32,000 nt of DNA, taken from the NCBI RefSeq assembly GCF_000016745.1, contig NC_009483.1, positions 3,270,001 through 3,302,000 of the forward strand. Reading direction: 5' to 3'. Both the position numbers and the translations under genes were made by a program. Below are positions 4,778 through 32,000 of this stretch, in pieces; the first letter of the stretch is position 1, and every line of letters begins with the position of its first letter. The stretch comes from Geotalea uraniireducens Rf4. GTDB lineage: Bacteria; Desulfobacterota; Desulfuromonadia; Geobacterales; Geobacteraceae. Below the pieces are notes generated by a model. The model saw only the letters and a list, made by a program, of their open reading frames with translations. It was not told the DNA's origin and did no database searches.

Positions 4778-4792
4778 TGGTGTCCCCCTTAG

Positions 4793-5704
4793 TTACTTCT
4801 TGCTTTTATTCATGAGAATTCTTCGTGACTGGGTAGATATCACCGAAGATACATTCTTGCTCTTGGCCAAAAACGCCAGGTCCTTCTCTGTTAAAGACGC
4901 CATAAATCGGAGGGCGACCGGGAGCGGCGTCTTGTGGTTCTCCACCAGGGCCTTGCGGATCTGATAGTTTTTCACCCACTCCTTGTTCGCGCATATGACG
5001 CGCATGATTTCGTCGTTCTGTACGTTGGACTTGGAAATGGTGAGTATCTCCCCTTCGGTAATCCTTGGATTTTTCACCACAGACCCGGAAACCAGCTTGT
5101 TTGAGTCTTTCAGCAGTATGGAGCGCCACTCCTTGTCACCGGTAAGCGCCATTTTTATTTTGTCGGCAACCCCCAGTTGCTGCGACAACTGATACTTGGA
5201 CTTGAACGCCTCTTCTTCCTCTGCAACTTCCGCATCTTCGGCAGTTTCTGCCTGTTTATCATCTTCATTTGCGGCATCGAGATCAAATTTATCCTGGCTT
5301 GCACTCTCAGCCATGGCGTCAAAACAGAGTATCCCCTTTTCAGCCAGGAATCGGCGCGTACCATCGTCACAGTTCGGGTGCAGAGCAACCTTCTCCGCAA
5401 CAGCCTGCCGAGGAAAATGGAGCCGGGCAATCACGTCGAGAAGCCGCGAATTGATGTCGGGAAGGTCGACAATCGTCATAAGCAATGGTTCCGACAGCTC
5501 TCGCAAGCTCTTCAGTGCTGCAACTTTAATATCTGCGTCCTGGTCATGGCTTAGATAAAAGAGGAGCGCCATCAAATCATTAGGGGCAAGTGAAACCTCG
5601 GCGCGGGCCGCTCTCAATTTGTCCGTTTTCGGCGTATCACTCCTGACATAGGGAGCTGCCGCCGCAGATATTTTCAGAGTAACTTTCTTGGGCACACCTA
5701 TCAC
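4793..5704 (-). CDS. Hypothetical protein with helical (HEAT/LRV-like) repeats and an acidic linker
   Basis: The GTG start overlaps the stop of the upstream SPOR gene (GTGA). Repeated helical units contain NP..T/..L motifs (VKNPRITEGEIL, ENHKTPLPVAL), and there is a central acidic tract (EDAEVAEEEEA). No family is firmly recognised. Confidence 0.6.
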   Translation of the reverse strand: MIGVPKKVTLKISAAAAPYVRSDTPKTDKLRAARAEVSLAPNDLMALLFYLSHDQDADIKVAALKSLRELSEPLLMTIVDLPDINSRLLDVIARLHFPRQAVAEKVALHPNCDDGTRRFLAEKGILCFDAMAESASQDKFDLDAANEDDKQAETAEDAEVAEEEEAFKSKYQLSQQLGVADKIKMALTGDKEWRSILLKDSNKLVSGSVVKNPRITEGEILTISKSNVQNDEIMRVICANKEWVKNYQIRKALVENHKTPLPVALRFMASLTEKDLAFLAKSKNVSSVISTQSRRILMNKSKK

Positions 5705-6810
5705 TTCTTTTTCCCGGCATTGATTACCGTGGCGGAAATACCGGCTTTTTTCAGCCTTGCAACCGCTTTCCGGGCCTCGTCTTTGCCGGCGAAACTGCCG
5801 GCTGTCAGGACTGTAACCGGCACTCCGACTTCCGCTTTCTTCATGATCAGCTTTACGCCCTTGTCGAATAGCCGGTCCTGCTCGATGGCTGCTTTGCCTT
5901 CACTGTAATAGGACCCTGCATAAATCACGAATTTGTCACCCTCTTTCAAGAGGAATGCGTCAGGCGCAATTTTCTGCAATTTCTTAAGATCGGCAACGGC
6001 TGACTCATGGTCGCTAAATTCAGCATAATAGAGCCTGTGCATCGGTTCAGTCTTGTGAATCTTTTGCCGCTCAACCGGCGTAACCGCAAGCTTTTTCAGT
6101 TTTGCCTCTGCAGCACGCATATTTTTTTCAAGAACGTACGCGCCGATTTTCAGCGTATAAGCGCCTGCTACTTGTTTCTCAGCAGGCTTTGTTATCTGTT
6201 TTGCGGCAGCAGCGGCAACAGGAGCCGGCTTTTTCCCTGACGGCTTGGCCGCGGCAGCTGCTTTCTCTTCGGTTTTAGCCTGCACCTTGGGTTTCATTGC
6301 TGGAGCCGGCTTTGCCGCCGCTTTTCTGTCGGCCGGCGCCTCCGCTTTTGCAGTTTTTACCGGTTCGGCTTTGGCTGGAGCTTTGGCTGGAGCTTTGGCT
6401 GGAGCTTTGGCTGGAGCTGGAGCTTTGGCTGGAGCTGGAGCTGGGGTTGGGGCTGCGACTGGTGCAGGTTTCGGTTTCTGCGCCGGTGCAGGTTTCGCTT
6501 GGCCGGGTTCGCCGGCAGAAGGTTTCCCATCCTTGTCAGCAACCTGCTTCTTTTCTTCCGGCTTTGCCGTCGGCTCCCCGTTTCCAGCCGGTTGTTCCTT
6601 GCGCGGAGGCATCGGCTTTTTCACCTGAGCCGTCTGCACCGCTTGCTCTTTAGCCACTTCACGAGGTTTTATCAAGCCGGTAAAGAAATAAAGATAGCCA
6701 AATACTGCTACCAGCACGAGCAAGACAAGGAGAAGGGCCTGTCGTGAATTCCCCTTCTCACCTCGGCCTGGAAGATTTTCCTCGGAATCCGGTAAAAACT
6801 GCTTGGACAT
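5701..6810 (-). CDS. Membrane-anchored SPOR-domain (septal peptidoglycan-binding) protein with a Pro/Ala/Lys-rich linker
   Basis: It has one N-terminal TM helix and a ~180-aa low-complexity PAKA/PAPA linker. Two C-terminal SPOR-like modules follow (YTLKIGAYVLEKNMRAAEAKLKKL...; VTVLTAGSFAGKDEARKAVARLKKAGISATVI). AAGGAGG RBS. Confidence 0.8.
   Translation of the reverse strand: MSKQFLPDSEENLPGRGEKGNSRQALLLVLLVLVAVFGYLYFFTGLIKPREVAKEQAVQTAQVKKPMPPRKEQPAGNGEPTAKPEEKKQVADKDGKPSAGEPGQAKPAPAQKPKPAPVAAPTPAPAPAKAPAPAKAPAKAPAKAPAKAEPVKTAKAEAPADRKAAAKPAPAMKPKVQAKTEEKAAAAAKPSGKKPAPVAAAAAKQITKPAEKQVAGAYTLKIGAYVLEKNMRAAEAKLKKLAVTPVERQKIHKTEPMHRLYYAEFSDHESAVADLKKLQKIAPDAFLLKEGDKFVIYAGSYYSEGKAAIEQDRLFDKGVKLIMKKAEVGVPVTVLTAGSFAGKDEARKAVARLKKAGISATVINAGKKK
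6366..6446. repeat. In-frame 12-bp/6-bp tandem repeat (AGCTTTGGCTGG / AGCTGG units) encoding APAKAPAK...
   Basis: Directly visible run: gctttggctggagctttggctggagctttggctggagctttggctggagctggagctttggctggagctggagctgg, inside the SPOR gene linker. Confidence 0.85.
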
Positions 6811-16966: not shown

Positions 16967-18424
16967 TTATTCAAATGGGAAGCTGGAAATAGCGGTTATT
17001 TCTATTCTTTGCTCATTCCCGGTGCGAAGGTCGGCAGCAGAAACCTGGAGAATGCCGTCGACGTTAATAGTGAATGTCACCTCTATCTTCGGATCCCCCT
17101 TCGGTTCAGGAGGGATGTCCGCAAGCTCAAAAATGCCGAGACTCATATTATCACCGGCAGTCTCTTTCTCTCCCTGAAGGACGTGGATACTGACCGACGT
17201 CTGGTTATCGGCAGCGGTTGTAAATATCCTGTTTCTTGAGACGGGAACTGTGGTATTTCTGTCGACGATCCTGGTAAATGTCCCTCCTTGGGTCTCAATC
17301 CCCAGGGAGAGCGGCGTGACGTCCAGCAAAACGACGTCGCTGAACTCACCGGCAATGATCCCTCCCTGTATCGCAGCGCCAATGGCTACCACCTCGTCAG
17401 GGTTAATGCCGTCATGGCAAATCTTCGAATCGCCGAACAAATTCTTTGCAAGTTCCAGCACCGCGGGCATCCGGGTCGAACCACCAACGAGAATAACCCT
17501 GTCGATATCCTCGAACCTGAGCCTGGCATCGGAAAGCGCCTGCAGGGTGGGCCCTACCAGCTTTCGGAGGAGAGAGTCGGTTAATTCCTCGAAATCTTCC
17601 CGCGAAAGGCGTATAGGCAATATACTCCCATCCCTGGCATCTCCCCCCGTCAGGGCGTTAAGGGGAATGGTTATCTCAGCAACCATTTCACGAGACAGCT
17701 TTTTCTTAGCGAGTTCCGCCGTCTCTCTCAGGAACGATAAGGCCGCTTTATCTCTCAAAGGATCGATTCCGGTCTCCAGATGTATGATTCCGGCCAGATG
17801 CTTGACGATCCTTTGATCCCAGTCATCCCCGCCCAGATGGGTATCACCGTTGACCGCCATGACCTCGAATATCCCTTGGCCAAGTTCCAGGACGGAAACA
17901 TCGAATGTACCGCCACCCAAATCCCAGACGAGTACCGTATGGATCTCCTCCTTGTCCAGCCCATAGGCTAAAGCTGCGGCGGTCGGCTCGTTGATTATCC
18001 TTACCACATCCAGGCCGGCCACGATCCCGGCTTCCTTTGTGGCTTCGCGCTGTTCGTTGTTGAAATAGGCGGGGACCGTGATCACAACCTTCTCTATCCT
18101 TTCCCCCAGATACGCTTCCACATCTCCGACAACTTTGCGAAGGATCATCCCCGATATCCCTGCCGGTGTGTAAACATTTCCCCCCGCATGAAACCTTTGC
18201 AATGAGCCCATATACCTCTTGACCGAGACGATGGTCCCCTCGGGATTGCCGATCGCCTGGTGCAAAGCACCCTTTCCCGCCAGCATCCCGTCATCCGTGA
18301 AGGCCACCACCGAAGGGGTCAGATTTTCACCGTCCCCATTGGGAATAACCACAGGGCGTCCATTATCGAGAATGGCAACAACCGTATTGGTGGTCCCCAG
18401 ATCGATACCGATTATCCTGGACAT
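16967..18424 (-). CDS. Hsp70/DnaK-family chaperone lacking the C-terminal helical lid (485 aa); last gene of the gvp operon
   Basis: [35 protein letters not shown] and the interdomain linker [16 protein letters not shown] are present. The SBD-beta region runs to [29 protein letters not shown], and the protein ends ~12 aa later. The ATG at 18424 has GGAGG 4 nt upstream and overlaps the upstream gvpJ/M gene by 13 nt. Confidence 0.9.
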
Positions 18425-18651
18425 GGTTCCTCCGTAGCCCGAATTTCCTTGTCCCACTCCTCCATGACGCCATATTTGGTCATCGTTTCCATTCCGGCCA
18501 CGGCTGCCCTCAGGTTGACGCCGACCAAGGGGATGCCCGCAATGGAGATAACCAGGTCCGCATCCACTACGACCCCCTTGTCGAGGACCCTCTCCAGCAC
18601 ATCAACCAGCGTAATATTTCCTTTGCTTGCATGTTCCATATTCACCGTCAC
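18412..18651 (-). CDS. gvpJ/M: GvpA/J/M-family gas vesicle protein (minor structural paralog)
   Basis: The core TLVDVLERVLDKGVVVDADLVISIAGIPLVGVNLRAAVAGMETMTKYG matches the GvpA-family fold signature. The GTG start overlaps the upstream stop (GTGA). Confidence 0.85.
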   Translation of the reverse strand: MTVNMEHASKGNITLVDVLERVLDKGVVVDADLVISIAGIPLVGVNLRAAVAGMETMTKYGVMEEWDKEIRATEEPCPG

Positions 18652-19397
18652 ATGTCGACAAAGCTGTACGGCGGCCAGGGGCCGGTAGGGCGTACTGCGA
18701 TACCTTCCCTGAGGTTGATGATCTCCAGTTCCGCTGTCATCTCATCACGCCTTTCCCCGGGGACCAGGACCGACAGGTTCATGATCATCCGTACGCCGTT
18801 ATCTGCCGCCTTCACCTCTTCAATGATTATCCGTTCCGCCAGCTCCTCGATCCTCTGGTAGATATTCTCGAAATACCTTTCCTTCTCCCTTGCCATCTCG
18901 CGCTTTAACGCCTTTTCCAGGAGCTGGCCATGCATGTAAGCCGCTCCTGTCCCACCCTCCGTCTTCGCCTTGAGTTCCCTGAGGGCCGGCACACTATCCA
19001 CAAGCCTTCCTGCAACAAGATCCTCGTCCCAGAATACCTGGACACCGTATTCTTCCCTGCCCCTCAACCGGCCGATACTTTTTCGCAGTTCCCCGTGGTT
19101 TCCCCCCAGCCATCCATTGAGATCATCCGCCCCCCCCTTGATGACGGTATGGAATCTTACCGGGAGGATTGTTCCGAACCGCCTCCATGCCGTTTCAACC
19201 ACCTTCTGGTGGGAGACGACCCAGCCGATCATACTTTCTCTCTCCCAACAATCGGGCGGGTCTCCCTGGTAATTATGGACAATCGCAGACAGGCCTTCAA
19301 AATGAACAGTATAGACCTCGCTCCCATCTATCCCGATCCTTCCGAGCGAAATTTCCTCGTCCCCCTCCGCCACGCAATAGATATATCTACCTTCCAT
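18648..19397 (-). CDS. gvpF/L: GvpF/GvpL-family gas vesicle assembly protein
   Basis: The N-terminus is YIYCVAEGD...VYTVHFEGLSAIV, and the C-terminus is ...NLSVLVPGERRDEMTAEL...VRPTGPWPPYSFV, typical of GvpL/F. The start is set at the ATG at 19397 (GGAG 7 nt upstream), overlapping the end of gvpK. Confidence 0.85.
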   Translation of the reverse strand: MEGRYIYCVAEGDEEISLGRIGIDGSEVYTVHFEGLSAIVHNYQGDPPDCWERESMIGWVVSHQKVVETAWRRFGTILPVRFHTVIKGGADDLNGWLGGNHGELRKSIGRLRGREEYGVQVFWDEDLVAGRLVDSVPALRELKAKTEGGTGAAYMHGQLLEKALKREMAREKERYFENIYQRIEELAERIIIEEVKAADNGVRMIMNLSVLVPGERRDEMTAELEIINLREGIAVRPTGPWPPYSFVDM

Positions 19398-19677
19398 GCA
19401 AGTCTCCGCCAAGCACCCCTTCCACCAGGTTGTCCAGACTATCCCTCACAGACCTGACCGCCTCGGTAACACCGTTATCCTCTTTTATCTGTTCCACGAC
19501 CCTGTCAAACTCCATGAGGGACTTTCCCAGCCTTTCCACCTCCTCCGCGTTCAGGCTTCCGTTTTCCATCCGCCTTACGGCCTGGGTCTTGAGAAGATCC
19601 CTGATTATCTCCACCAGGGCAAGGACGAGCCCCAGAACCCCCTGCTTGAGATTGTCCTGCTCGATGTCGATATTCAT
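19387..19677 (-). CDS. gvpK: Gas vesicle protein GvpK
   Basis: GVLGLVLALVEIIRDLLKTQAVRRMENGSLNAEEVERLGKSLMEF is the characteristic GvpK core. Confidence 0.85.
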   Translation of the reverse strand: MNIDIEQDNLKQGVLGLVLALVEIIRDLLKTQAVRRMENGSLNAEEVERLGKSLMEFDRVVEQIKEDNGVTEAVRSVRDSLDNLVEGVLGGDLHGR

Positions 19678-19692
19678 GGGGATATTTTACTC

Positions 19693-20058
19693 CTAGAGAC
19701 TATAGTCGGTTGTATGGGCTGCAATCTTCGCCCTGGCGCTCTCCCAACCGCACCAGGGACAACCTGCGGCGATCAGTTCATCCACAGAAACCCTCTTTCC
19801 GCATTCGGGGCAGGTTTCCTTGGTCGTGATCCCCTCTTTCCAGGCAGGAGCCTCAAGATTGATCCCTGAAGGAAACGCCAGACCATACCTGGCCGCTACC
19901 TCAAAAGAGGCAATGCTCGCCCTGATCTTGATGCTGAGGAGTTCAGTCCCGACAATGGATATGGCAATGTCCGCATTGATGACTATTCCCTTGTCCAGGA
20001 TCCTGTCGAGCACATCCAGCAAGGAAGCGCTGTTGTTTATTGTCCCTTCTATGGCCAT
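19693..20058 (-). CDS. gvpJ: GvpA/J-family gas vesicle protein with a C-terminal CxxC-x13-CxxC zinc-ribbon extension
   Basis: The GvpA-family core is SLLDVLDRILDKGIVINADIAISIVGTELLSIKIRASIASFEVAARYG. A ~50-aa tail follows, containing CPECGKRVSVDELIAAGCPWC. The AAGGAG RBS lies 6 nt upstream. Confidence 0.85.
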   Translation of the reverse strand: MAIEGTINNSASLLDVLDRILDKGIVINADIAISIVGTELLSIKIRASIASFEVAARYGLAFPSGINLEAPAWKEGITTKETCPECGKRVSVDELIAAGCPWCGWESARAKIAAHTTDYSL

Positions 20059-20068
20059 CCGTTTCTCC

Positions 20069-20374
20069 TTAGTCCCTTAGAAAAATTATTTGCATGTTTT
20101 TTGCCAGCGTTGTCCGGTTTGGTTTGTGCATCAAGGTTGTTAAGCCCCATTAGGGGCGTTCGAATGTAGCCGGGGGATTCATCCCCCGGATGAGATGCTA
20201 TATTTCCCCACGTCACGTACGTGACGTGATGATATTTCGCCTGGATGACCGGGGAATGAATTCCCCGGCTACCAGTATTCTGTCCCTACGGGACGTAAGC
20301 AAAAACCAAACCGGACAACGCTGGTTTTTTGCGAAGAATTTTTCGTGAAGGGACTTATCCCGTTCATCGGGGTT
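20069..20374. repeat. Copy A of a 78-bp intergenic module, split into 35-bp and 43-bp halves by a MITE insertion
   Basis: 20069-20103 plus 20332-20374 are 100% identical to 25247-25324, by direct base-by-base comparison. Confidence 0.9.
20104..20324. mobile_element. MITE-like non-autonomous element (221 bp) with 22-bp perfect terminal inverted repeats and a 7-bp target-site duplication
   Basis: The TIR is CCAGCGTTGTCCGGTTTGGTTT at 20104-20125, with its reverse complement at 20303-20324. The flanking TTTTTTG is duplicated (20097-20103 and 20325-20331). An empty-site paralog at 25270-25285 carries a single TTTTTTG. The element has no ORF. Its interior is a chain of hairpins, including the perfect 20-bp palindrome CACGTCACGTACGTGACGTG. 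Confidence 0.8.
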
Positions 20375-22368: not shown

Positions 22369-22671
22369 CTACTCTTCCACTAACGTTTCGGCGCGCCTGC
22401 GCATCCCTTTGCGGCTGAATTCGAGCAGATTGCCGTGATTATCCAGTACGGCCTCATAGGTTGCAAGGATATCCATGTTATCAGGTATGACGCGCTTTTC
22501 CACCAGCTCGACCGACACTCGCCATCCCATCTCATCCTTCGCAGTCTTCAGCGTGGATGAAAGCTCCAGGCCGGTCAGAACGCTGAGCTCACTTCTTGCC
22601 TTCTGGATGATATTCCCGATAGACATCGCCATTTTTGCCGCCTCCGGCTGTTCAGACGAATCGACTTTCAT
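22369..22671 (-). CDS. gvpO: Gas vesicle protein GvpO
   Basis: The core LTGLELSSTLKTAKDEMGWRVSVELVEKRVIPDNMDILATYEAVLDNHGNLLEFSRKGMRRR matches my recollection of the GvpO family. The ATGA overlaps the gvpG stop. Confidence 0.8.
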   Translation of the reverse strand: MKVDSSEQPEAAKMAMSIGNIIQKARSELSVLTGLELSSTLKTAKDEMGWRVSVELVEKRVIPDNMDILATYEAVLDNHGNLLEFSRKGMRRRAETLVEE

Positions 22672-22907
22672 AATTCCTCTTTACGTTCCATGATCTCTTC
22701 CAGCCTGGCCATCAGTTCCGCTTCCTTGCTCAGATACTCTTCTTCGGTCATCTCATCGAGCTCAAAGCGCATCTGTAGTTCGAGAAGTTCCTCATGTATC
22801 CTGGAGTCGTCGGTCATCTCCGACTCAGCCATGTCCTTGAGTTTATCGGCTACCCAGACCAGCCCTTTTATGGGTGAAAGGAGAATGTCATCCAACAAAA
22901 AGATCAT
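22668..22907 (-). CDS. gvpG: Gas vesicle protein GvpG
   Basis: MIFLLDDILLSPIKGLVWVADKLKDMAESE...EEEYLSKEAELMARLEEI is the typical GvpG N-terminal hydrophobic helix plus acidic helix. The ATGA overlaps the upstream gene. Confidence 0.85.
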   Translation of the reverse strand: MIFLLDDILLSPIKGLVWVADKLKDMAESEMTDDSRIHEELLELQMRFELDEMTEEEYLSKEAELMARLEEIMERKEEL

Positions 22908-23881
22908 TCGACGACCCTTACCATTATGGCATCCTTCCCGAAAGCGAGGTTGCTGCAGCCCGTCAGGATTTTGTATGCCCGGCTGAACTTCTCGAAAATC
23001 ATCTGCGCATCGGGGTCGCCGGAATTATTGTCCGGGTGATACTTCCGGAGCTGCTTCCTATATGCCTTCCTGACCTCGTCCTTATCATCTCCAGGGACCA
23101 CGCCGATGATATTCATCGCTTCCTCAATCTCCCCGGCCCCTATTCTGCATATTTCCAGGGTATTGAAGCTGTGAGGAGGAAGCGGGCCTATGACCCGGAA
23201 GTTTATTCTGCCGCAATACCTCTTATCCAGCCCTTCTATCTGCTCATCCAGCGCGTTTTTCTTCTCACTCTCCACAAGAAAAGCCACGTTCAGCAGCATC
23301 CTGTCATCGAAATGCTCGCGGATCCTCTGCTCAAGGTGATGCTCCTTAAGAGCGAACAAAATTTCGTTCCCGACCCTCCCATTCTCCTCCTCCAGGGCCA
23401 CCCTGACCATTTTTCCCAGCTCTATGGCCGCCTCCCTAAGCTCTTCCCGGGATGCAGTTGCAATCTCTTCCTTGAACCGTCGAATCTCGTCTCTCTCCCC
23501 CAGTTCCCTCAATGTCGAATCCAGATCATTCCACAAGGCTATCAAATCCACCTCGACCTTGCCCGCCATGCTGTCGATCGCGTTTTTGAAGCAAGGGTAT
23601 CCCGATTCCAGTATTTCGAGAAGCTCCCCGTCATCCATGGCCGATGTCCCGAATTTTATCGGGACAGCCGTACACTCCTTCATAATCCCCTCGATCAGCG
23701 ACTGGTGGTTTGCCAGGTGCCGGACAAGGATATCCTTGGGAAGGGATGCGTAGTTTATGGGTGATGATTCCTTTACCACCAGGGCGATGTCGCGGTACGG
23801 CACGAGATAGGCGCAATCCCCCGAAACCGCCGCATCCCCGCCATCACGGCTTACAACGCAATAAAGATGCTTTGCCATCAT
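22904..23881 (-). CDS. GvpF/GvpL-family protein fused to a C-terminal DnaJ (J) domain
   Basis: Residues 1-245 are GvpL/F-like (HLYCVVS..., LLNVAFLVESEKKNALDEQI..., FRVIGPLPPHSFN). Residues ~250-305 are EIEEAMNIIGVVPGDDKDEVRKAYRKQLRKYHPDNNSGDPDAQMIFEKFSRAYKIL, with the diagnostic HPD tripeptide. Confidence 0.85.
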   Translation of the reverse strand: MMAKHLYCVVSRDGGDAAVSGDCAYLVPYRDIALVVKESSPINYASLPKDILVRHLANHQSLIEGIMKECTAVPIKFGTSAMDDGELLEILESGYPCFKNAIDSMAGKVEVDLIALWNDLDSTLRELGERDEIRRFKEEIATASREELREAAIELGKMVRVALEEENGRVGNEILFALKEHHLEQRIREHFDDRMLLNVAFLVESEKKNALDEQIEGLDKRYCGRINFRVIGPLPPHSFNTLEICRIGAGEIEEAMNIIGVVPGDDKDEVRKAYRKQLRKYHPDNNSGDPDAQMIFEKFSRAYKILTGCSNLAFGKDAIMVRVVE

Positions 23882-23888
23882 TGTCCCT

Positions 23889-24440
23889 TCAGGGCTTCTT
23901 CCTGGCCTTCTTTTTTGAAACTCTGATATCGAGGATGCCGTTTTTGTAAGAGGATTTGAGTGTGGCCGGATCGACAGACGATGGCAGGGGAATCTCTTTC
24001 ATGTATTTCCTGTCCTTATTCCCGGCCTTGAGGAAAAGGGTATCGCCTTTAACATCGATGCTGATGTGCTCATTTTCCACACCGGGCATCTCCGCAACCA
24101 CCACCACGTGATCCTTCTCATCGAACACGTCTATCATCGGCTCCCTGACCTCCTCCACCACAGGCCCTTTTGCGGTGTCCCTGACGTTACCGAAGGACTC
24201 TACAACGGGCTTGCCGCCCATGGTCCGCACCGTAAAGCCGTAGACACCTTTCGCCTCCTTAGGCATTCCCCTTATCTCACCCTCCTTGCGGATCTCTTCC
24301 CCCTTTTCAGCCGCTGTGGCGGCAAGGTCAATAAGGGTTCCAAGCCCCTTGAAGAGCCCTCCAAAAGAGACTTTGCCCAGACCGAAATCGATCTCTACCC
24401 CCTCTTCCTCTTTTTCCGCTTTCTTTTTTCTCTCAGCCAT
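23889..24440 (-). CDS. Hsp20/alpha-crystallin small heat-shock protein (GvpH-like position)
   Basis: The alpha-crystallin domain is IDVFDEKDHVVVVAEMPGVENEHISIDVKGDTLFLKAG...EIPLPSSVDPATLKSSYKNGILDIRV. A Lys/Glu-rich N-terminus precedes it. Confidence 0.88.
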   Translation of the reverse strand: MAERKKKAEKEEEGVEIDFGLGKVSFGGLFKGLGTLIDLAATAAEKGEEIRKEGEIRGMPKEAKGVYGFTVRTMGGKPVVESFGNVRDTAKGPVVEEVREPMIDVFDEKDHVVVVAEMPGVENEHISIDVKGDTLFLKAGNKDRKYMKEIPLPSSVDPATLKSSYKNGILDIRVSKKKARKKP

Positions 24441-24467: not shown

Positions 24468-25217
24468 TCATTTCCATTCCACGACTAGGTTCACAAAATT
24501 GAAAGGCGGTATTGGACCGACATATTTGAATATGAGCCTATCCTTGTTTGCGGCGTCGAGTTCCGTCATTCTCTCGTCAAACTCCCTTATCCGCCCACGT
24601 TCTACAAGGAAAGCCGCATTTAAATTCATGTTGTCTCCATGGAGTTTATTTACGCTGGTTCTGCGGGATATCGGCTTCAACTTGTCGAGGATATATCCCG
24701 CTTCCCGTTCCTTTCTGGCCACAAGCGCCGCCTGGACCATCCGGCCGAGGTTGATCCTGTCAGCGTAACACTTATCCGGCGGGACCGAGGCTATTTTCCC
24801 CTTCAGTCTCTTTATTTCCGGTTCCGTTTCTCCGATTTCATGAAATACCTCGTTTAAATCCTTCCAGAGGGACTTCACCCCGAGCTCCACCATGTTGTCC
24901 ATATCCCTAAGGAGTTCCTTGAACTCCATATATCTCTTTCTCAACACCCTGCGGATATCTTCCACGCTTTCAGCGACGGTGCAGAACCTCACAGGGAGGA
25001 CCGTATGATCCTTCATGACCTCTTCGATGACCTTCTGATGGGCCAGCAGATTTTCTCTGGTAAGGGTGTATTTGATCACAGGGGTCCCGCTGATAACTGC
25101 AGCGATGTTCTCGCAATTTATGGTGGTTACCACATCTCCACGGCCACCGATCCCCATGGGACCGAAATTTCTCGCGTCATCAGTCCCTATGATGCAATAT
25201 AAATAATTGTTTTCCAC
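24468..25217 (-). CDS. gvpF/L: GvpF/GvpL-family gas vesicle assembly protein
   Basis: YLYCIIGTDD..., LLAHQKVIEEVMKDHTVLPVRF, NLNAAFLVERGRIREFDERM and FKYVGPIPPFNFV. The GTG start has GGAGA 6 nt upstream. Confidence 0.85.
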   Translation of the reverse strand: MENNYLYCIIGTDDARNFGPMGIGGRGDVVTTINCENIAAVISGTPVIKYTLTRENLLAHQKVIEEVMKDHTVLPVRFCTVAESVEDIRRVLRKRYMEFKELLRDMDNMVELGVKSLWKDLNEVFHEIGETEPEIKRLKGKIASVPPDKCYADRINLGRMVQAALVARKEREAGYILDKLKPISRRTSVNKLHGDNMNLNAAFLVERGRIREFDERMTELDAANKDRLIFKYVGPIPPFNFVNLVVEWK

Positions 25218-25246
25218 CCATGGTCTCCGAAATACAAAATTCCCTC

Positions 25247-25324
25247 TTAGTCCCTTAGAAAAATTATTTGCATGTTTTTTGCGAAGAATTTTTCGTGAAG
25301 GGACTTATCCCGTTCATCGGGGTT
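25247..25324. repeat. Copy B (intact) of the 78-bp intergenic module; contains an interrupted palindrome
   Basis: Identical to the split copy A. On the minus strand it reads AGTCCCTT-cac-GAAAAATT-(21 nt)-AATTTTTC-t-AAGGGACT, that is, two 8-bp arm pairs. It lies immediately upstream of the RBS of the downstream gvp gene. Confidence 0.9.
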
Positions 25325-25342: not shown

Positions 25343-25660
25343 TCAATAATCCATAACCATCGTCTTGAATTTTTCCTTTGCCCCCTTCGGAGCATTTTCT
25401 TTGGAATTCCTTTTCCCGTCTTCCTTCAATACGGTTTTTCCAATATTTATTATTTCTTTTCCGAGATCTTTCAGGTCATCCTCTATACTCTTCTTTCTCT
25501 TGAGCAGGGCGTGCAACTCCAATTCCAGTTTGGTCCTTTTCCGCGTCAATACATAGAGGTCAAGGTAGCGGTTCACCGAAGCCTTCGGCACGGAACGGAT
25601 TTTCGTTCTTGGGGCGGTTCTTGGAGCGGTTCTTATAATTGATCCACTTGTAATGCTCAC
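25343..25660 (-). CDS. Small basic coiled-coil protein in the gvpV position (tentative GvpV-like)
   Basis: GTG start with a GGAGGG RBS 7 nt upstream. It has an N-terminal RTAPRTAPRT repeat and then RYLDLYVLTRKRTKLELELHALLKRKKSIEDDLKDL. It sits directly after gvpN, as gvpV does in Serratia/Anabaena-type clusters. Homology is not verifiable here. Confidence 0.5.
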   Translation of the reverse strand: MSITSGSIIRTAPRTAPRTKIRSVPKASVNRYLDLYVLTRKRTKLELELHALLKRKKSIEDDLKDLGKEIINIGKTVLKEDGKRNSKENAPKGAKEKFKTMVMDY

Positions 25661-25686: not shown

Positions 25687-26709
25687 TTACAGCATGCTGA
25701 CTGCCTTGTCACCCACCGCTATTCTCTGGCCGACCTTAAGGGACGGTTTCGTATCCGTATTCATTTCCCCGGCTTCAGGGTTACTCCCACAGTGCCTGTC
25801 AACCAGTTCAGCTATGAACTCCTTAACCTTTTTTATATTGGCATCGCTTCCCACCCTGCTCGTTTCCGAGGCAAGTACATCAGTGCAGATACTCCTGAAT
25901 ATTTTGTTCCCCGCTTCGACCGCGGCCTTTCTTACCTTCGCAGTCTTTGCAATCATGATGCATCCCCTCACAGTGGGTGCAAACTCGTATTTCCCGGAAT
26001 CCCTGAGACTCCTGACGATATTCACAATTTTTTCCGAATCGTGCAGGGGCAATCCCGACTTTGCCGAGGTTATAGCCATTTCCGTCTCCTTGTCAGGATA
26101 GCTGATGTCTATCGTGACCATCCTGTCCCGCAGAGCGTCCTGGCTCCTGTAGACTCCCGCATACTCCTCGGGATTGCTTGTAAAGATCGCGACAAAATCC
26201 GGGTGCACCTTGAGATACCCTTCTCCCCCCCTTGCAGTGGGCATGCCCATCATCTTTTCCTGCAGGACAGACAGGAGAACGTTATTGGCTTCGGGCCTGG
26301 ACCTGGTAAATTCGTCATAGATCAGAGTGAACCCTTTTTTGCAGGCCAGCGTCAGCCGGCTGTCTATCCAGGAACTGTTCATGCTCTCTTCAGTCTTCAG
26401 GACTGAATGAATGAAGTTGTCCACGACCTTCTTTTTCCTGTAGCCATGCTGCCCCCCCACCAGGTCGGATGTGGAATGCTCCTCGTCACCATGCATGATA
26501 ACGAGCGGCCTGCCGAGCTTACTGGCAACATGCATGGCAATTGTGGTCTTGCCTGTACCTGAGGTCCCCCTGAAGTGGACGGGGAAACCAGCAGCAATAT
26601 AGGCAAGAGCCCGCTCCGTCACATCCCGGACATAGTCCGTTTCCACAAAGTTCGGCAAAGAACGGGGCTCTAAAACGGTCGCCAGTACTTCAGCATTTTC
26701 TTCCTGCAT
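25687..26709 (-). CDS. gvpN: Gas vesicle AAA+ ATPase GvpN (CbbQ/NirQ/NorQ/GvpN family)
   Basis: Walker A FRGTSGTGKTTIAMHVA, Walker B LIYDEFTRS, and an arginine-finger region. The size is ~340 aa. The AAGGAGAG RBS lies 6 nt upstream. Confidence 0.9.
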   Translation of the reverse strand: MQEENAEVLATVLEPRSLPNFVETDYVRDVTERALAYIAAGFPVHFRGTSGTGKTTIAMHVASKLGRPLVIMHGDEEHSTSDLVGGQHGYRKKKVVDNFIHSVLKTEESMNSSWIDSRLTLACKKGFTLIYDEFTRSRPEANNVLLSVLQEKMMGMPTARGGEGYLKVHPDFVAIFTSNPEEYAGVYRSQDALRDRMVTIDISYPDKETEMAITSAKSGLPLHDSEKIVNIVRSLRDSGKYEFAPTVRGCIMIAKTAKVRKAAVEAGNKIFRSICTDVLASETSRVGSDANIKKVKEFIAELVDRHCGSNPEAGEMNTDTKPSLKVGQRIAVGDKAVSML

Positions 26710-27094: not shown

Positions 27095-27430
27095 TTATTG
27101 TTTCGCACTTTTCCTGGCAGCGCCGCCTCTTTTCGCCTGCATAGTGGAGCCCAAGTGCCCCCATGCAGCAATTGCGTCGTCGTGCTCCTTTTTGAAACCC
27201 TTGAGAAGATTGCTCGTCTCTTTCTTCATGGAGTACCTTGCCTTGGAAAGATCCTGCCTGAGCTGTGACGCCATCTCACCCCGCTCCTTGTGAAGATCGT
27301 CAAGCATCCTGTGGACATCGTCAGTCATTTCGTGGACATCCTTTTTGATGGATGCAAGAACAGCCATCCTTTCATCAAAAGAAGCGGTAATATCCTGGGC
27401 TAGTGCCTTGAATCCGTCTACTCTTGCCAT
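27095..27430 (-). CDS. Hypothetical charged alpha-helical protein (111 aa) inside the gvp operon
   Basis: AAGGAG RBS 8 nt upstream. The sequence is rich in heptad-like charged helices (DERMAVLASIKKDVHEMTDDVHRMLDDLHKERGEMASQLRQDL). No family is recognised. Confidence 0.6.
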   Translation of the reverse strand: MARVDGFKALAQDITASFDERMAVLASIKKDVHEMTDDVHRMLDDLHKERGEMASQLRQDLSKARYSMKKETSNLLKGFKKEHDDAIAAWGHLGSTMQAKRGGAARKSAKQ

Positions 27431-27457: not shown

Positions 27458-28105
27458 TCAACCCTGCCATGCCGTCTTGTCATAGAAACTGAACACCCCT
27501 TCCCACTGAGCGGCCACTTCCCGGCGTATCCTGTCAAACTCATCCAGTATCCGGTCTATCTCGTCACTGGATTCCCTGTCACGGTTACCGAGCGTCTTAA
27601 CCACGGATTTCAAGTCCTTTATCCTTACCTCCTCCCCTTTGGACAAAAGATTTTTCAATGCCGCTATCAACTCTTCCTGCTCCAGCTGGAACTTCATCAG
27701 TGACTTTGCCACCTCTTTCTCTCGTTCCCTGAGCCGCAAAAGGATATCCCTCTTCATTATTTCAAAATCGGCAGGGTTGCAATTCCCGGTGAGGACCTTC
27801 TTCAAGATGAGGATCATCTCCCCTTCTTCCTGCCATATAGTTTCCAGCTGCTGCCGGGTTTTTGTCTCTCTTTCTCTCCTCTTGGCCAGGACGGTTTCCA
27901 TCAGGGCATCAAAGTCCTTTTTTCTCATCCCCCCATGCCTCGAGAGATTTTCCTTCAAACGTCTGCTCATCTCATCCTGTTCCCTGCAATAGTTATTCAC
28001 ACGTTTCATTGCTTCAACAACGAGAGTATTGACAAGCTTTAACCGCTTTTCGTACGATTTTATGATCTCCAACCCTATAGTTCTCAAAGGTTCCTGAAAC
28101 TCCAT
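27458..28105 (-). CDS. Charged helical repeat protein in the gvpC position (candidate GvpC functional analogue)
   Basis: The ATG at 28105 has GGAG 6 nt upstream. There are two clear ~47-aa internal repeats: KKDFDALMETVLAKRRERETKTRQQLETIWQEEGEMILILKKVLT and PADFEIMKRDILLRLREREKEVAKSLMKFQLEQEELIAALKNLLS. It lies directly downstream of gvpA. Confidence 0.6.
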   Translation of the reverse strand: MEFQEPLRTIGLEIIKSYEKRLKLVNTLVVEAMKRVNNYCREQDEMSRRLKENLSRHGGMRKKDFDALMETVLAKRRERETKTRQQLETIWQEEGEMILILKKVLTGNCNPADFEIMKRDILLRLREREKEVAKSLMKFQLEQEELIAALKNLLSKGEEVRIKDLKSVVKTLGNRDRESSDEIDRILDEFDRIRREVAAQWEGVFSFYDKTAWQG

Positions 28106-28195
28106 TTCCAACTCCGCTCATAATCCTTGTACGGTTTCGCGTCTACTGTTTGTGTGAATGGAGATGGAGACATGCTTGAGTAACTTGTTTATAAT

Positions 28196-28253: not shown

Positions 28254-28472
28254 TTACGCATGCATTGCCGTCGCAGTGGTTGTAAGGCCTACTGCCTCGG
28301 CATACTTAAGGAAAGTATCCACAGAGGCAACAACGACCCTCGCTTCGATAGCGAGAAGCTCGATCCCCACTAAGGAAACCCTTGCCCAAGCATCGATACA
28401 TACGCCCTTGTCCAGGATCCTGTCGATTACCTCGACGAGACTGGAAGATGCATTTGTTTTCTCAACTGCCAT
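28254..28472 (-). CDS. gvpA: Major gas vesicle structural protein GvpA
   Basis: [63 protein letters not shown] is nearly identical in pattern to canonical GvpA. The start is set at the ATG at 28472, with an AGGGGG RBS, not the GTG at 28481. Confidence 0.95.
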
Positions 28473-28617
28473 GATATTCACCCCCTTTCTTTGAACTGGC
28501 GTGACACTCTAAACCCTTTATTCCATCGATCGATACGGAGCGATCCGTCTCACGCAAATCTTTTCCGCATGCGTCGTCGGTTACTTCAAAGTTTAGAGAT
28601 ATCTAATAAGAGACTAT

Positions 28618-28726: not shown

Positions 28727-30187
28727 TTATTCCTGAAAGGGGAAGGAAGCTCCTCCCCTTTCGGGGAAATGCTTCCCGCCTATTGGATTCCTGTTTCTGG
28801 CAGACCTGATCTGGCCTATCTTGGTACGGAGCGTCTTCGGGTCAATGTTCAGGAACCGGGAGACCCTGACCATATTAAGGTTTGATCTCTCCATTACATT
28901 CCTTATCACGGTCTCTTCGAGCCGGTCGCTCCACTTTTTGATCAACGCCTTCAGATCAAGAGAGCCCTCCAGCAGCCCCTTCTCTATCTCTTCCTCGACC
29001 TTTATCCCCGGGAAATGGCAATCCTCAGCATCTTCCGGCAGGGAAAAACTGCCCTTCCTGATGTATTCCGGCAGGTGTTTCGCCAAGATATCTCCGTCCG
29101 CAAGGATAACAGCTGACTTCACGACGTTTTCGAGTTCCCTCACGTTTCCGGGCCATGGATAGGCATTCAGGAGCAGCAAGGCTTCCTCGGAGATATTGGC
29201 CGCATTACCGAATTCTTCGGAATAGGCGGCCAGGAAATGACGGATCAGGACGTCCACATCCTTTACCCTATCCCTGAGGGAAGGTATCGCTATCGTCATC
29301 TGGCTGAACCTGTAAAAGAGGTCCTTCCTGAACACTCCGTTGTTAATAATCTCCGTAAGGGGGATGTTACTTGCCGCGACTATCCTGACATCCACTTTAA
29401 TTGCCTTGGTGCCGCCGACCCTCTCGATCTGCTTTTCTTCGACAGCCCTCAAGAGCTTGGCCTGATTGGAAGACGAGAGGTTTTCAACTTCGTCTATGAA
29501 CAACGTTCCTCCATGGGCCCTTTCGAACTTTCCGATCTTCCTTTCGGTGGCCCCTGTAAACGCCCCCTTCTCGTGTCCGAACAGCTCGCTTTCAATGAGC
29601 GTCTCCGAGAGGGCGGCGCAGTCCAGTGGAACAAACGGCCCGCTGCGTCTCTTGCTTTTCTGGTGGATGGCCCTGGCAAACAATTCCTTCCCGGTTCCGC
29701 TCTCCCCCTGGAGAAGGATGGTAATGTCCGAAAGGGCGAACTTATCCACCAATCGAAAGACTTTTTTCATCTGGGGGCTTGAACCCACAATGCCGCAATG
29801 GTCGTTGCCGGCAATGTTTCTTGCACTTATCACCCCGTTTATAAATCTTTTGAAGTCGTAATGGTTGAAAGGCTTCTGGACGAAGTCCATTGCACCCATC
29901 TTGATGGAGCGGACCGCGGTTTCGATACTCCCGTAGGCCGTCATCATCACGATAGGGGTTCCCCTGACGGCGTCCTTCATATCCCTGAGCATGTCCATGC
30001 CGTCTATATCCGGAAGGTTTATATCGAGCAGAATGATGTCGGGAAGACTCTCTTCCAGCACCCTCTTCATGGCCTCCTTGCCGGTTGTTACCTGCTCTAT
30101 TTCATAATTGTCACCGGCGAGAAGCCTCGACACTATCTTTCCCACATCCTTCTCATCATCAACCAGAAGAATCCTATGCATTTTCAT
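28727..30187 (-). CDS. Sigma54-dependent NtrC-family response regulator (REC, AAA+, Fis-type HTH); GvrA-like position
   Basis: The REC domain has ILLVDDE...DIILLDINLPDIDG. The AAA+ domain has Walker A GESGTGKELFARAIH, the GAFTGA loop, and LFIDEV. The C-terminal HTH is NMVRVSRFLNIDPKTLRTKI. The start is placed at the ATG at 30187 (MKMHRILLV), overlapping the end of the kinase gene. Confidence 0.9.
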   Translation of the reverse strand: MKMHRILLVDDEKDVGKIVSRLLAGDNYEIEQVTTGKEAMKRVLEESLPDIILLDINLPDIDGMDMLRDMKDAVRGTPIVMMTAYGSIETAVRSIKMGAMDFVQKPFNHYDFKRFINGVISARNIAGNDHCGIVGSSPQMKKVFRLVDKFALSDITILLQGESGTGKELFARAIHQKSKRRSGPFVPLDCAALSETLIESELFGHEKGAFTGATERKIGKFERAHGGTLFIDEVENLSSSNQAKLLRAVEEKQIERVGGTKAIKVDVRIVAASNIPLTEIINNGVFRKDLFYRFSQMTIAIPSLRDRVKDVDVLIRHFLAAYSEEFGNAANISEEALLLLNAYPWPGNVRELENVVKSAVILADGDILAKHLPEYIRKGSFSLPEDAEDCHFPGIKVEEEIEKGLLEGSLDLKALIKKWSDRLEETVIRNVMERSNLNMVRVSRFLNIDPKTLRTKIGQIRSARNRNPIGGKHFPERGGASFPFQE

Positions 30188-31229
30188 CTTTTCTCCCATC
30201 GGCCGGAAGAAGAATAGAAACGGTTGTCCCTACGCCTTCCTTGCTGGTGACCGTAATCCTGCCGTTATGCTCTCTGACGATGTTCCTGACAATGAAGAGC
30301 CCAAGACCGTTCCCGTTGCACTTGGTAGTATGGAACGGTTTGAAAATCGTCTTCATATCCTTTTCGGATATCCCGATGCCGCTGTCCGTAACCTCCACAA
30401 GAACCGCGTCCTTTCCGTCGAGATCAACTCTCTTTGCCGCTACGGAAAACTTTCCTCCGTTGGGCATCGCCTCGATTGAGTTCTTGACCAGGTTCAGAAA
30501 TACCTGCTTCAAGCGATGGGGATTGCAGCATACTATCGGAAGATTATCCTCGATGGATGCCTCGATCACCACGCCGTGCCCCTCACATTCCTTCTCGACA
30601 AAGTGCAGGATCTGTGAAAGGCTGCTGCAGATATCGTGAAAAACGATCTGTTCTTTATTGGGCCTCGAAAACTCCGAAATGTCTTTCAACAACTCGTGCA
30701 TCCTGTCGATGTTTTCCATGACCACCTGGCTGTACATGGTCAAATCGCCGCCCATCCTTGTCAGGTGGTCGTTAAGGAATCGCATGGTGGATTTCATGAT
30801 CCCCAGCGGATTCCCGATTTCGTGGGTGATGCAGGTGGCCAACTGTCCCATGGCAAAGAGCTTTTCCGCCTGCAGAAACTTCTCCTCCAGCCACATCCTT
30901 TCCGACAGCTCTTCCATGAGGACGATGATCCCGTCCGGCGTAACGGATGTTGCGCTTTTCATCACGACCCTCAGGTCAATACCGTTGTTCAGGCGAAGCC
31001 TGCTTTCCCTTCTGCCGACCTCCCCCCCCAAAACATCTTCCATCATCCCCTTGAGAGTATCGTCCGGGACAATTTCGGAAAAGGGCCTGTTCAGAATTTC
31101 TTCGTCGATTGAAAAGAGATCCATGAAATCGCTGTTGGCCGCTTGAATGCGGAACTCACTCCCGAGGAGGAGGGCCGCCATGGGTATTGCCTCGAAAACA
31201 TGCGGGAACAGCAGGGATACTTCATTCAT
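30174..31229 (-). CDS. Cytoplasmic PAS-HisKA-HATPase sensor histidine kinase (GvrB-like position)
   Basis: It has an N-terminal PAS-like region, the H-box ATCITHEIGNPL, the N-box LNLVKNSIEAM, and G-boxes DSGIGI and GNGLGLFIVRNIV. GAGGTGA RBS. Confidence 0.85.
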   Translation of the reverse strand: MNEVSLLFPHVFEAIPMAALLLGSEFRIQAANSDFMDLFSIDEEILNRPFSEIVPDDTLKGMMEDVLGGEVGRRESRLRLNNGIDLRVVMKSATSVTPDGIIVLMEELSERMWLEEKFLQAEKLFAMGQLATCITHEIGNPLGIMKSTMRFLNDHLTRMGGDLTMYSQVVMENIDRMHELLKDISEFSRPNKEQIVFHDICSSLSQILHFVEKECEGHGVVIEASIEDNLPIVCCNPHRLKQVFLNLVKNSIEAMPNGGKFSVAAKRVDLDGKDAVLVEVTDSGIGISEKDMKTIFKPFHTTKCNGNGLGLFIVRNIVREHNGRITVTSKEGVGTTVSILLPADGRKDENA

Positions 31230-31515: not shown

Positions 31516-32000
31516 TTATCTGCGCCCTTCCATGAAGACTTTCATCGCCTCCTGGAAATGAGCTGCGGATATTTTCAACGTCTTGGGATCGTCTGCGCCT
31601 TTCTCGACGAACTCGCAGATTGCAATAATGGTAGCTTTTCTGCACAGGAACTCTATATCGGCGCCGACCAGTCCTTCCGTTTCAGCGGCAATGGACTTCA
31701 GATCAACGTCCTTGAGAAGCGGTTTGCCTCTCGTATGAACCTTGAATATCTCCAGGCGGGCATCTTCGCCGGGAGGCGGGATCTCGACGAGGATATCGAT
31801 GCGCCCCGGCCTCAGGAGAGCCGGGTCTATGATATCCTTTCTGTTGGTGGCGCCGAGGATGAAGACCCCCTTCAGCTCTTCGGTCCCGTCTATCTCGGTC
31901 AGGAGCTGGCTTATGACCCGCTCCGACACATGGGAATCTCCGCCCCCTCCCCTTGCAGGAGCAATTGCGTCCATCTCGTCGAAAAAGAGTATGCAGGGGG
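31516..32000 (-). CDS. AAA+ ATPase, CDC48/VCP-like subfamily (C-terminal part; gene continues beyond the window end)
   Basis: The Walker B region ILFFDEMDAIAP runs to the window edge. Sensor-1 is GATNR, the second region of homology/arginine finger is DPALLRPGRID, and a helical lid follows (GADIEFLCRKA). Confidence 0.85.
   Translation of the reverse strand, partial: PCILFFDEMDAIAPARGGGGDSHVSERVISQLLTEIDGTEELKGVFILGATNRKDIIDPALLRPGRIDILVEIPPPGEDARLEIFKVHTRGKPLLKDVDLKSIAAETEGLVGADIEFLCRKATIIAICEFVEKGADDPKTLKISAAHFQEAMKVFMEGRR

Follow-up and report, generated by a model that had tools for sequence, protein, structure and literature searches.

How the extremely hydrophobic gas-vesicle shell protein GvpA is kept soluble and inserted into the vesicle wall is an open question, and so is the role of the GvpF/L proteins. 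In haloarchaea, GvpL and GvpF bind the N-terminus of GvpM, a hydrophobic GvpA-like protein, GvpH prevents the aggregation of GvpM, and accessory Gvp proteins have been proposed to chaperone GvpA or to keep it soluble (PMC6107691). In E. coli, expression of gas vesicles is proteotoxic unless the assembly factors precede GvpA, and these factors chaperone GvpA2 (PMC12848028). The presence of ArsA and Hsp20 in gas-vesicle (gvp) clusters, including that of Geobacter uraniireducens, was noted in 2010 (PMC2963123). Here we describe a 32,000-nucleotide stretch of Geotalea uraniireducens Rf4 (NC_009483.1, positions 3,270,001 to 3,302,000; this whole stretch is called the window below), in which a gvp cluster encodes a GvpF/L protein carrying a C-terminal J-domain, together with an Hsp70. 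Full-text searching found no description of a J-domain GvpF/L, of a gvp-linked Hsp70 or of a gvp-linked CDC48. Gvp is not mentioned in the main text of a large J-protein survey (PMC10410713), nor in a large survey of DnaK paralogs. As far as could be told, the fusion architecture is visible in precomputed Pfam annotation, yet it is unnamed and undiscussed, probably because the carriers found are uncultured organisms. The fusion is probably a new client-specific J-protein, and its cluster a new, chaperone-rich type of gvp cluster.

Like the canonical GvpF/GvpL proteins (Microcystis 4QSG, Anabaena 6L5D and the haloarchaeal ones), the fusion protein matches PF06386, has the two-lobed alpha/beta fold and is encoded in a gvp cluster beside gvpG. 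It differs from them in having about 85 extra C-terminal residues, which make up the J-domain and a terminal strand, and in forming a clade of its own, as the third paralog of a cluster that also has GvpF-like and GvpL-like genes. An initial annotation of the window, made from its letters and open reading frames (ORFs), had proposed that a GvpF/L protein is joined to a J-domain, and this is borne out within one ORF. In the Pfam comparison that it recommended, amino acids 5-239 match PF06386 (GvpL_GvpF; E 1.2e-51, 176.5 bits, cut-off 23.6) and amino acids 257-307 match positions 4-54 of the 63 of PF00226 (DnaJ; E 1.4e-13, 51.2 bits, cut-off 27.8), both far above chance. Its coordinates were accurate and the peptide that it quoted, KAYRKQLRKYHPDNNSGDPDAQMIFEKFSRAYKIL, is found exactly in the minus-strand ORF 22904..23881; it had not noted that the gene is on the minus strand, that the J-domain lacks helix IV and the Hsp70 its lid, how large and widespread the family is, or that further chaperones (Hsp20, Get3-like ArsA, CDC48-type AAA+ and, in relatives, DnaJ-type zinc-finger proteins) accompany the fusion. 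Coding on the plus strand at 22904-23881 is ruled out by in-frame stops. A ribosome-binding site, GAAGGGA, lies 5′ of the ATG of the fusion gene, and its stop codon overlaps the gvpG start (ATGA). By the NCBIfam equivalog models the protein is neither a named GvpF (51.8 bits, cut-off 350) nor a named GvpL (41 bits, cut-off 200), and the NCBIfam TopJ models match it weakly, via the J-domain.

In J-domains generally, helix II, the HPD motif and helix III form the contact to Hsp70, and binding to ATP-loaded Hsp70 triggers hydrolysis. We modelled the fusion protein with AlphaFold2 on 54 sequences, with a mean predicted local distance difference test score (pLDDT) of 89.7 and a predicted template modelling score (pTM) of 0.80. 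In Foldseek comparisons, the GvpF/L body of the model matches the GvpF crystal structures 6L5D and 4QSG with target-normalised TM-scores (template modelling scores) of 0.75-0.80 (E 3e-13 to 2e-11), and the C-terminal part matches many J-domains, among them the DnaK-bound J-domain of DnaJ (5NRO_B; root-mean-square deviation 1.1 A over 53 residues, 42% identity). The best PDB sequence match of the last 80 residues is to residues 6-61 of E. coli DnaJ (E 1.5e-10). The modelled helices I, II and III span amino acids 249-259, 267-281 and 292-308, respectively; helix II is basic (RKAYRKQLRKY), and the core of helix III matches F47, A53, Y54 and L57 of DnaJ, according to the alignment to DnaJ 6-61 and the conservation table. 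The J-domain segment had initially been assigned to the C-terminal 75 or so amino acids. Helices I-III and the HPD motif are indeed found in this region, and helix IV is replaced by a beta-strand.

The fusion is widespread. Of 54 homolog clusters found among 5.8 billion proteins, with identities down to 30%, 49 carry both Pfam domains. When 1.84 billion representatives (50% identity) were searched with a profile, 958 matched at E <= 1e-30; nearly all of the best 150 of these cover the profile in one stretch, from about position 2 to beyond 312. With a second query, from a Desulfobacteraceae locus, 527 clusters at 90% identity were found at E <= 1e-40, and 117 of the 120 listed have both domains on record, the remaining 3 being short or partial proteins. 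Family members appear in their sources as 'GvpL/GvpF family gas vesicle protein', 'hypothetical protein', 'Chaperone protein DnaJ' or 'DnaJ-domain-containing protein 1'. Related stretches numbered 491 in a scan that took one genome per GTDB species, and 80 of them were kept for analysis; in all 80 species genomes the match to the query extends through helix III, with the HPD motif in the same ORF. The same single-ORF architecture recurs in 86 independently assembled loci, including these 80, which leads us to reject the frameshift or assembly artefact that the initial annotation had considered. The labels of the 80 genomes cover more than 15 phyla (Geobacteraceae, Desulfobacteraceae, Syntrophales, Nitrospirota, Dehalococcoidia, Actinomycetota, Planctomycetota, Omnitrophota, Verrucomicrobiota, NC10, Acidobacteria and others are among the labels); all are metagenome-assembled genomes (MAGs) or single-cell genomes, and the labels need caution since bins may hold mis-binned contigs. 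The protein search for a cultured host among the relatives likewise returned metagenome and MAG sources only. Two fusion-bearing sequences, both on short contigs, lie in archaeal-labelled bins, namely L065 (Candidatus Methanoperedens, 3.6-kb contig) and P0426 (Methanosarcinaceae); they may reflect mis-binning rather than true archaeal presence.

The HPD motif, which had been noted as intact, is invariant (H282, P283, D284) in all 84 distinct family sequences, down to about 30% overall identity, and Y274, F296, A302, Y303 and L306 are each kept in 77 or more of the 84. Because it is exactly the elements of helix II, HPD and helix III that are kept across the family, the Hsp70-facing part of the J-domain is, by its conservation, under selection. 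Most relatives also have a Cys-containing turn after helix III, and in all of them the terminal strand follows the pattern (hydrophobic)-x-V-(K/R)-(V/I), an alternation of hydrophobic and basic residues. In a simple neighbour-joining tree of 258 GvpF/L paralogs from the fetched loci, the J-bearing proteins form one clade: all 82 flagged tips lie inside a clade of 84, and the other two tips, the fusion genes of loci L014 and L033, both carry HPD. Together, these findings point to one ancient fusion event and a later spread together with the gas-vesicle cluster.

An Hsp70 in the same operon, which the initial annotation had named as the obvious partner, is present and linked with the fusion in both search directions. 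Its gene lies 4.4 kb downstream of the fusion gene with only minus-strand gvp genes between them, and its likely start is M12 of the listed ORF. The protein aligns to residues 1-474 of Geobacillus DnaK and has the nucleotide-binding domain, the interdomain linker and the beta part of the substrate-binding domain (SBD-beta). It ends about 10 residues past SBD-beta, without the alpha-helical lid (SBD-alpha) and without a C-terminal tail. This end is not a truncation artefact: the homolog in a Geobacter MAG (L008) stops at the same place, and the closest database relatives (93-60% identity) are 480-512 amino acids long. As aligned, the Geobacter-type gvp-linked Hsp70s (those of the window, L008, P0055-P0067, P0078 and P0142) are a conserved, naturally lidless subfamily; gvp-linked Hsp70s that are more distant have 569-612 amino acids and retain a short lid. 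In a residue comparison with E. coli DnaK, the gvp-linked Hsp70s keep the J-contact residues R167, N170 and T173 (DnaK numbering) and a VLLD-type linker, with VRIINEPT present in the Hsp70 of the window, and most of them are without the insertion of about 25 residues of E. coli DnaK. They resemble the DnaK of Firmicutes at about 60% identity, and for this reason look like a separate paralog, not a copy of a proteobacterial host DnaK. The order gvpL, gvpM, hsp70 with overlap or near-abutment is also seen in L008, L087 and L088; that a GvpM-like gene always lies directly upstream of hsp70 was rejected, since this is true in 7 of 25 loci.

Gene linkage was scored across the loci of the relatives, whose flanks reach 10 kb on each side, by tblastn with the proteins of the window. 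For 41 loci the downstream flank is 9 kb or longer, and in 20 of these a same-strand Hsp70 gene lies 4-9.6 kb downstream of the fusion gene. Starting from Hsp70 instead, each of the 3 relatives that were looked up (60-62% identity) was found at the 3′ end of a gvp cluster, with the fusion gene in view in 2 of the cases. Of the 59 loci with sufficient upstream sequence, 49 encode a CDC48-family double-AAA+ ATPase, and in 37 its gene immediately precedes the fusion gene; Hsp20 is encoded in most of the longer loci. The cluster CDC48 has about 710 amino acids, with CDC48_N, CDC48_2 and two AAA domains (the copy in L087 lies at 4041-6179; TIGR01243, 953 bits), and its gene is found just upstream of the fusion gene in most of the loci L012-L086. 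Some clusters have a single-domain ArsA beside Hsp20 and others have no ArsA. Small stand-alone proteins with the CXXCXGXG zinc finger of DnaJ are encoded in 40 of the 86 loci, often two or three per cluster (for example, L001 9088-9519 and 18641-19033; L005 19900-20325). From the tblastn matches, the related clusters thus seem to divide the components of a class A DnaJ between the GvpF/L-J protein and separate zinc-finger proteins. The cluster in the window was found to have no such protein, its sole CXXCXGXG being in an off-frame ORF of 56 codons inside gvpN.

We think it probable that the fusion is a third GvpF/L paralog turned into a client-specific (class C) J-domain protein, which brings Hsp70 to hydrophobic Gvp clients bound to GvpF/L. 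The GvpF/L body would bind aggregation-prone, hydrophobic proteins of the GvpA family (GvpA, GvpJ, GvpM) or the assembly complex; such binding may be expected because haloarchaeal GvpL and GvpF bind GvpM (PMC6107691) and because of the proteotoxicity seen in E. coli (PMC12848028). The C-terminal J-domain would then dock on ATP-bound Hsp70 and trigger hydrolysis, upon which Hsp70 would clamp the bound client. The partner would primarily be the Hsp70 from the end of the same operon, and the housekeeping DnaK where there is no such gene. The genetic linkage makes the co-encoded Hsp70 the likeliest partner where it is present. The client would be kept soluble and passed to the growing vesicle wall, with Hsp20, the Get3-like ArsA and the CDC48-type ATPase in the same pathway. 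A conserved J-domain on a GvpF/L paralog would mean that evolution treats the GvpF/L fold as an adaptor that directs Hsp70 to a client or site, and the fusion makes chaperone-driven assembly of gas vesicles directly testable. If the proposal is true, the chaperone field gains a second prokaryotic case, after HscB/HscA, of a J-protein and an Hsp70 dedicated to each other, plus a naturally lidless Hsp70 subfamily.

By analogy, HscB and HscA of the isc operon are the closest working precedent for the fusion and the cluster Hsp70. In both cases the operon of a pathway also encodes a specialised J-protein and an Hsp70 to go with it, with no exchange factor seen alongside, and the second domain of the J-protein binds the client, as we infer for the fusion. 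In contrast to HscB, the putative client-binding domain of the fusion has the GvpF/L fold and not the C-terminal helical domain (the C-terminal oligomerisation and IscU-binding domain of HscB gave no Pfam or NCBIfam match in the fusion protein), and the J-domain is C-terminal. Moreover, the window Hsp70 is lidless, the pathway is gas-vesicle biogenesis, and no homology was found beyond the J and Hsp70 domains. Class A DnaJ, which works with DnaK and GrpE, resembles the fusion in that the fusion J-domain is nearest to that of E. coli DnaJ and in that many related clusters encode CXXCXGXG proteins separately; it differs in that the fusion has, by Pfam and NCBIfam, no G/F region, zinc finger or C-terminal client-binding domains, and no CxxC, and in that no GrpE was found among the cluster ORFs scanned. 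In the tail-anchor targeting of yeast, J-proteins promote the relay of clients from Hsp70 towards Get3 (PMC8054193). This GET relay (Ssa1 with J-proteins, Sgt2 and Get3) may be likened to the gvp clusters as a meeting of Hsp70, J-protein and Get3/ArsA ATPase around a hydrophobic client. However, the presumed client here is a gas-vesicle shell protein and not a tail-anchored membrane protein, some clusters are without ArsA, and no homologs of Sgt2, Get4 or Get5 were seen. TopJ of the Mycoplasma terminal organelle and auxilin likewise have a J-domain joined to a targeting domain, which directs Hsp70 to a single cellular structure, but their non-J parts and the structures that they serve are unrelated.

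Several observations weigh against the proposed adaptor role. Helix IV is not present in the fusion J-domain: the Pfam match ends at position 54 of 63, and the model has a strand at amino acids 318-324 instead. We do not take this as disqualifying because helix II, HPD and helix III carry the contact to Hsp70. The model, given its high pTM, also suggests that the J-domain is docked on the GvpF/L body and not loosely tethered to it, which may affect the exposure of the predicted Hsp70-binding face. The GvpF and GvpL proteins from which client binding is extrapolated are those of distant haloarchaea, and stimulation of the Hsp70 ATPase and a role in vesicle formation are predictions from sequence. 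The relatives all come from metagenome bins or single-cell genomes, so that the formation of vesicles by these clusters is presumed. It could even be asked whether the J-domain is a structural remnant that has lost its Hsp70 function, or the fusion an artefact of sequencing or assembly, as the partial Pfam match (positions 4-54 only) and the missing helix IV might allow. This we find barely credible. It is contradicted by the conservation data, with HPD invariant in sequences down to about 30% overall identity, as well as by the repetition of the single ORF in so many independent loci and by the confident prediction of a J-like fold.

The linkage data also leave gaps. No Hsp70 gene was found within 10 kb downstream in 21 of the 41 loci with at least 9 kb of flank, nor within 10 kb in any of the 12 loci with a single-domain-sized ArsA (10 upstream beside Hsp20, 2 downstream), and the cluster ORFs scanned gave no Pfam or NCBIfam match to GrpE or another exchange factor. 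The absence of Hsp70 from about half of the loci, the lack of an exchange factor among the scanned ORFs, and the similarity of the fusion J-domain to that of canonical DnaJ above all others are consistent with the same adaptor role being played with the housekeeping DnaK/GrpE as working partner, the cluster Hsp70 being an optional extra or serving another step. We hold this unlikely, since the linkage is far above chance given the 1-3 Hsp70 genes of a genome, and since the Hsp70 relatives looked up all lie in gvp clusters. Furthermore, several cluster Hsp70 genes start 9-9.6 kb downstream, so some loci without one may have it just beyond the 10-kb flank. A different division of labour would make the module one for disassembly or recycling, in which Hsp70 strips GvpF/L assembly complexes, as auxilin acts on clathrin, or forms with Hsp20 and CDC48 a disaggregase for misassembled or collapsed GvpA, like sHsp-Hsp70-ClpB. 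The combination of small heat-shock protein, J-protein, Hsp70 and AAA+ ATPase is what makes up a disaggregation (bi-chaperone) system. The adjacency of CDC48 makes disassembly a live option, and Hsp20 is frequent in the longer loci. Still, the sequences give nothing to separate assembly from disassembly, the CDC48 gene of the window is displaced about 7.7 kb upstream, beyond the regulators, and the fusion gene sits in the core gvpF-G-O block amid assembly genes; we consider disassembly quite improbable as the main role.

The client-specific adaptor that we favour could also be part of something larger. It is conceivable, if doubtful, that the gvp clusters of many uncultured anaerobes encode a complete proteostasis machine dedicated to one client, with an Hsp20 holdase, the J-GvpF/L adaptor, its own Hsp70, a Get3-like ArsA, a CDC48-type unfoldase and stand-alone zinc-finger proteins of the DnaJ type. 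The J-GvpF/L protein would be the hub that couples Hsp70 to the adjacent CDC48-type ATPase in order to extract, hold and deliver the amyloid-like GvpA, with controlled assembly and possibly ATP-driven dismantling or recycling of the wall protein as the outcome. If this holds, bacteria would have an organelle-specific disaggregase and assembly line without a described counterpart. In practical terms, many gvp clusters fail or prove toxic in E. coli (PMC10344784, PMC12848028), and the cluster-encoded chaperones are candidates for the missing helper genes in acoustic-reporter engineering.

Table 1. Features of the gas-vesicle cluster in the window (positions in the window; all on the minus strand)
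Feature	Position	Strand	Evidence or remark
GvpF/L-J fusion gene, 325 amino acids	22904..23881	minus	single ORF, ATG start; PF06386 and PF00226; AlphaFold2 model (pLDDT 89.7, pTM 0.80)
GvpF/L domain, amino acids 5-239	23165..23869	minus	PF06386 E 1.2e-51; Foldseek to GvpF structures 6l5d, 4qsg
J-domain helices I-III, amino acids 249-308	22958..23137	minus	PF00226 51.2 bits; best PDB sequence match E. coli DnaJ J-domain
HPD motif, amino acids 282-284, codons cac ccg gac	23030..23038	minus	read from sequence
C-terminal beta-strand IMVRVVE, amino acids 318-324, where helix IV of a J-domain would be	22910..22930	minus	DSSP strand in model; family-wide conserved pattern
Lidless Hsp70, 485 amino acids from M12	16967..18424	minus	PF00012 E 6.5e-179; listed ORF (16967..18457) starts at GTG 18457
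GvpM-like small GvpA-family gene	18412..18651	minus	NCBIfam halo_gas_GvpM E 1e-26; 3′ end overlaps hsp70 start
GvpL-like paralog	18648..19412	minus	PF06386 E 1e-61; NCBIfam GvpL 170.6 bits, below 200-bit cut-off
GvpK	19387..19677	minus	PF05121
GvpJ-like protein	19693..20058	minus	PF00741; NCBIfam GvpJ
Tandem-duplicated ArsA/Get3-family ATPase, 652 amino acids	20404..22362	minus	PF02374 E 7.7e-131, two stretches; TIGR00345 GET3_arsA_TRC40
GvpO	22369..22671	minus	PF05800
GvpG	22668..22907	minus	PF05120; start overlaps fusion stop
Hsp20/alpha-crystallin small heat-shock protein, directly upstream of fusion gene	23889..24440	minus	PF00011, PF17886; NCBIfam Hsp20 151.8 bits, cut-off 140
GvpF-like paralog	24468..25217	minus	PF06386 E 1.2e-67; NCBIfam GvpF best match
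GvpN AAA+ ATPase	25687..26709	minus	TIGR02640 351 bits, cut-off 266.8
GvpA, main shell protein, presumed client	28254..28481	minus	NCBIfam GvpA 133.6 bits, cut-off 100
Sigma-54 activator with receiver domain (28727-30199) and histidine kinase (30174-31229), upstream of gvpA	28727..31229	minus	Pfam
CDC48-family double-AAA+ ATPase, C-terminal part, cut by window end	31516..32000	minus	TIGR01243 E 2.4e-46; tblastn 189 bits to L087 CDC48

The gas-vesicle cluster of the window runs on the minus strand from about 31.2 kb down to 17.0 kb, in the order histidine kinase, sigma-54 activator, gvpA, two ORFs, gvpN, GvpF-like, Hsp20, fusion, gvpG, gvpO, ArsA/Get3, gvpJ-like, gvpK, gvpL-like, gvpM-like and Hsp70 (Table 1). 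The genes gvpA, N, F, G, O, J, K, L and M are all on the strand of the fusion gene, and the cluster genes are tightly packed and overlapping. Terminator-like sites are no commoner in the cluster region than in shuffled sequence. Below 16.9 kb the window contains ordinary chromosomal genes (EF-G, BirA, NadC, CoaX). The regulators that adjoin gvpA upstream are a sigma-54-dependent response regulator and a PAS histidine kinase; distant clusters (L001, L005) have two-component regulators of the GerE/LuxR type instead.

Some minor features of the other cluster genes may be added. Two CxxC pairs (CPEC, CPWC) in a C-terminal extension of the GvpJ-like protein make up a zinc-ribbon-like motif. The tandem ArsA ATPase has one CxxC in each half (CPFC at amino acid 264 and CRCC at amino acid 606), which we take to resemble the Get3 zinc-binding dimer motif rather than the ArsA metalloid site. 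Three minus-strand ORFs between gvpA and the GvpF-like gene (27458-28111, 27095-27430 and 25343-25660; 217, 111 and 105 amino acids, respectively) encode charged proteins rich in Lys, Arg and Glu and gave no family match in the Pfam and NCBIfam scans. Distant clusters have ORFs of similar size, also without a Pfam match, in the same places (L001 6152-6943 and 7048-7395, for example). Finally, an intergenic sequence of 79 nucleotides is exactly duplicated, being present at 25246-25324, upstream of the GvpF-like gene, and at 20068-20104 plus 20324-20374, upstream of gvpJ. The copy on the gvpJ side is split by about 220 nucleotides bounded by 26-nucleotide inverted repeats (20104-20129 and 20299-20324; 96% complementary), and this interruption looks like the insertion of a miniature transposable element.

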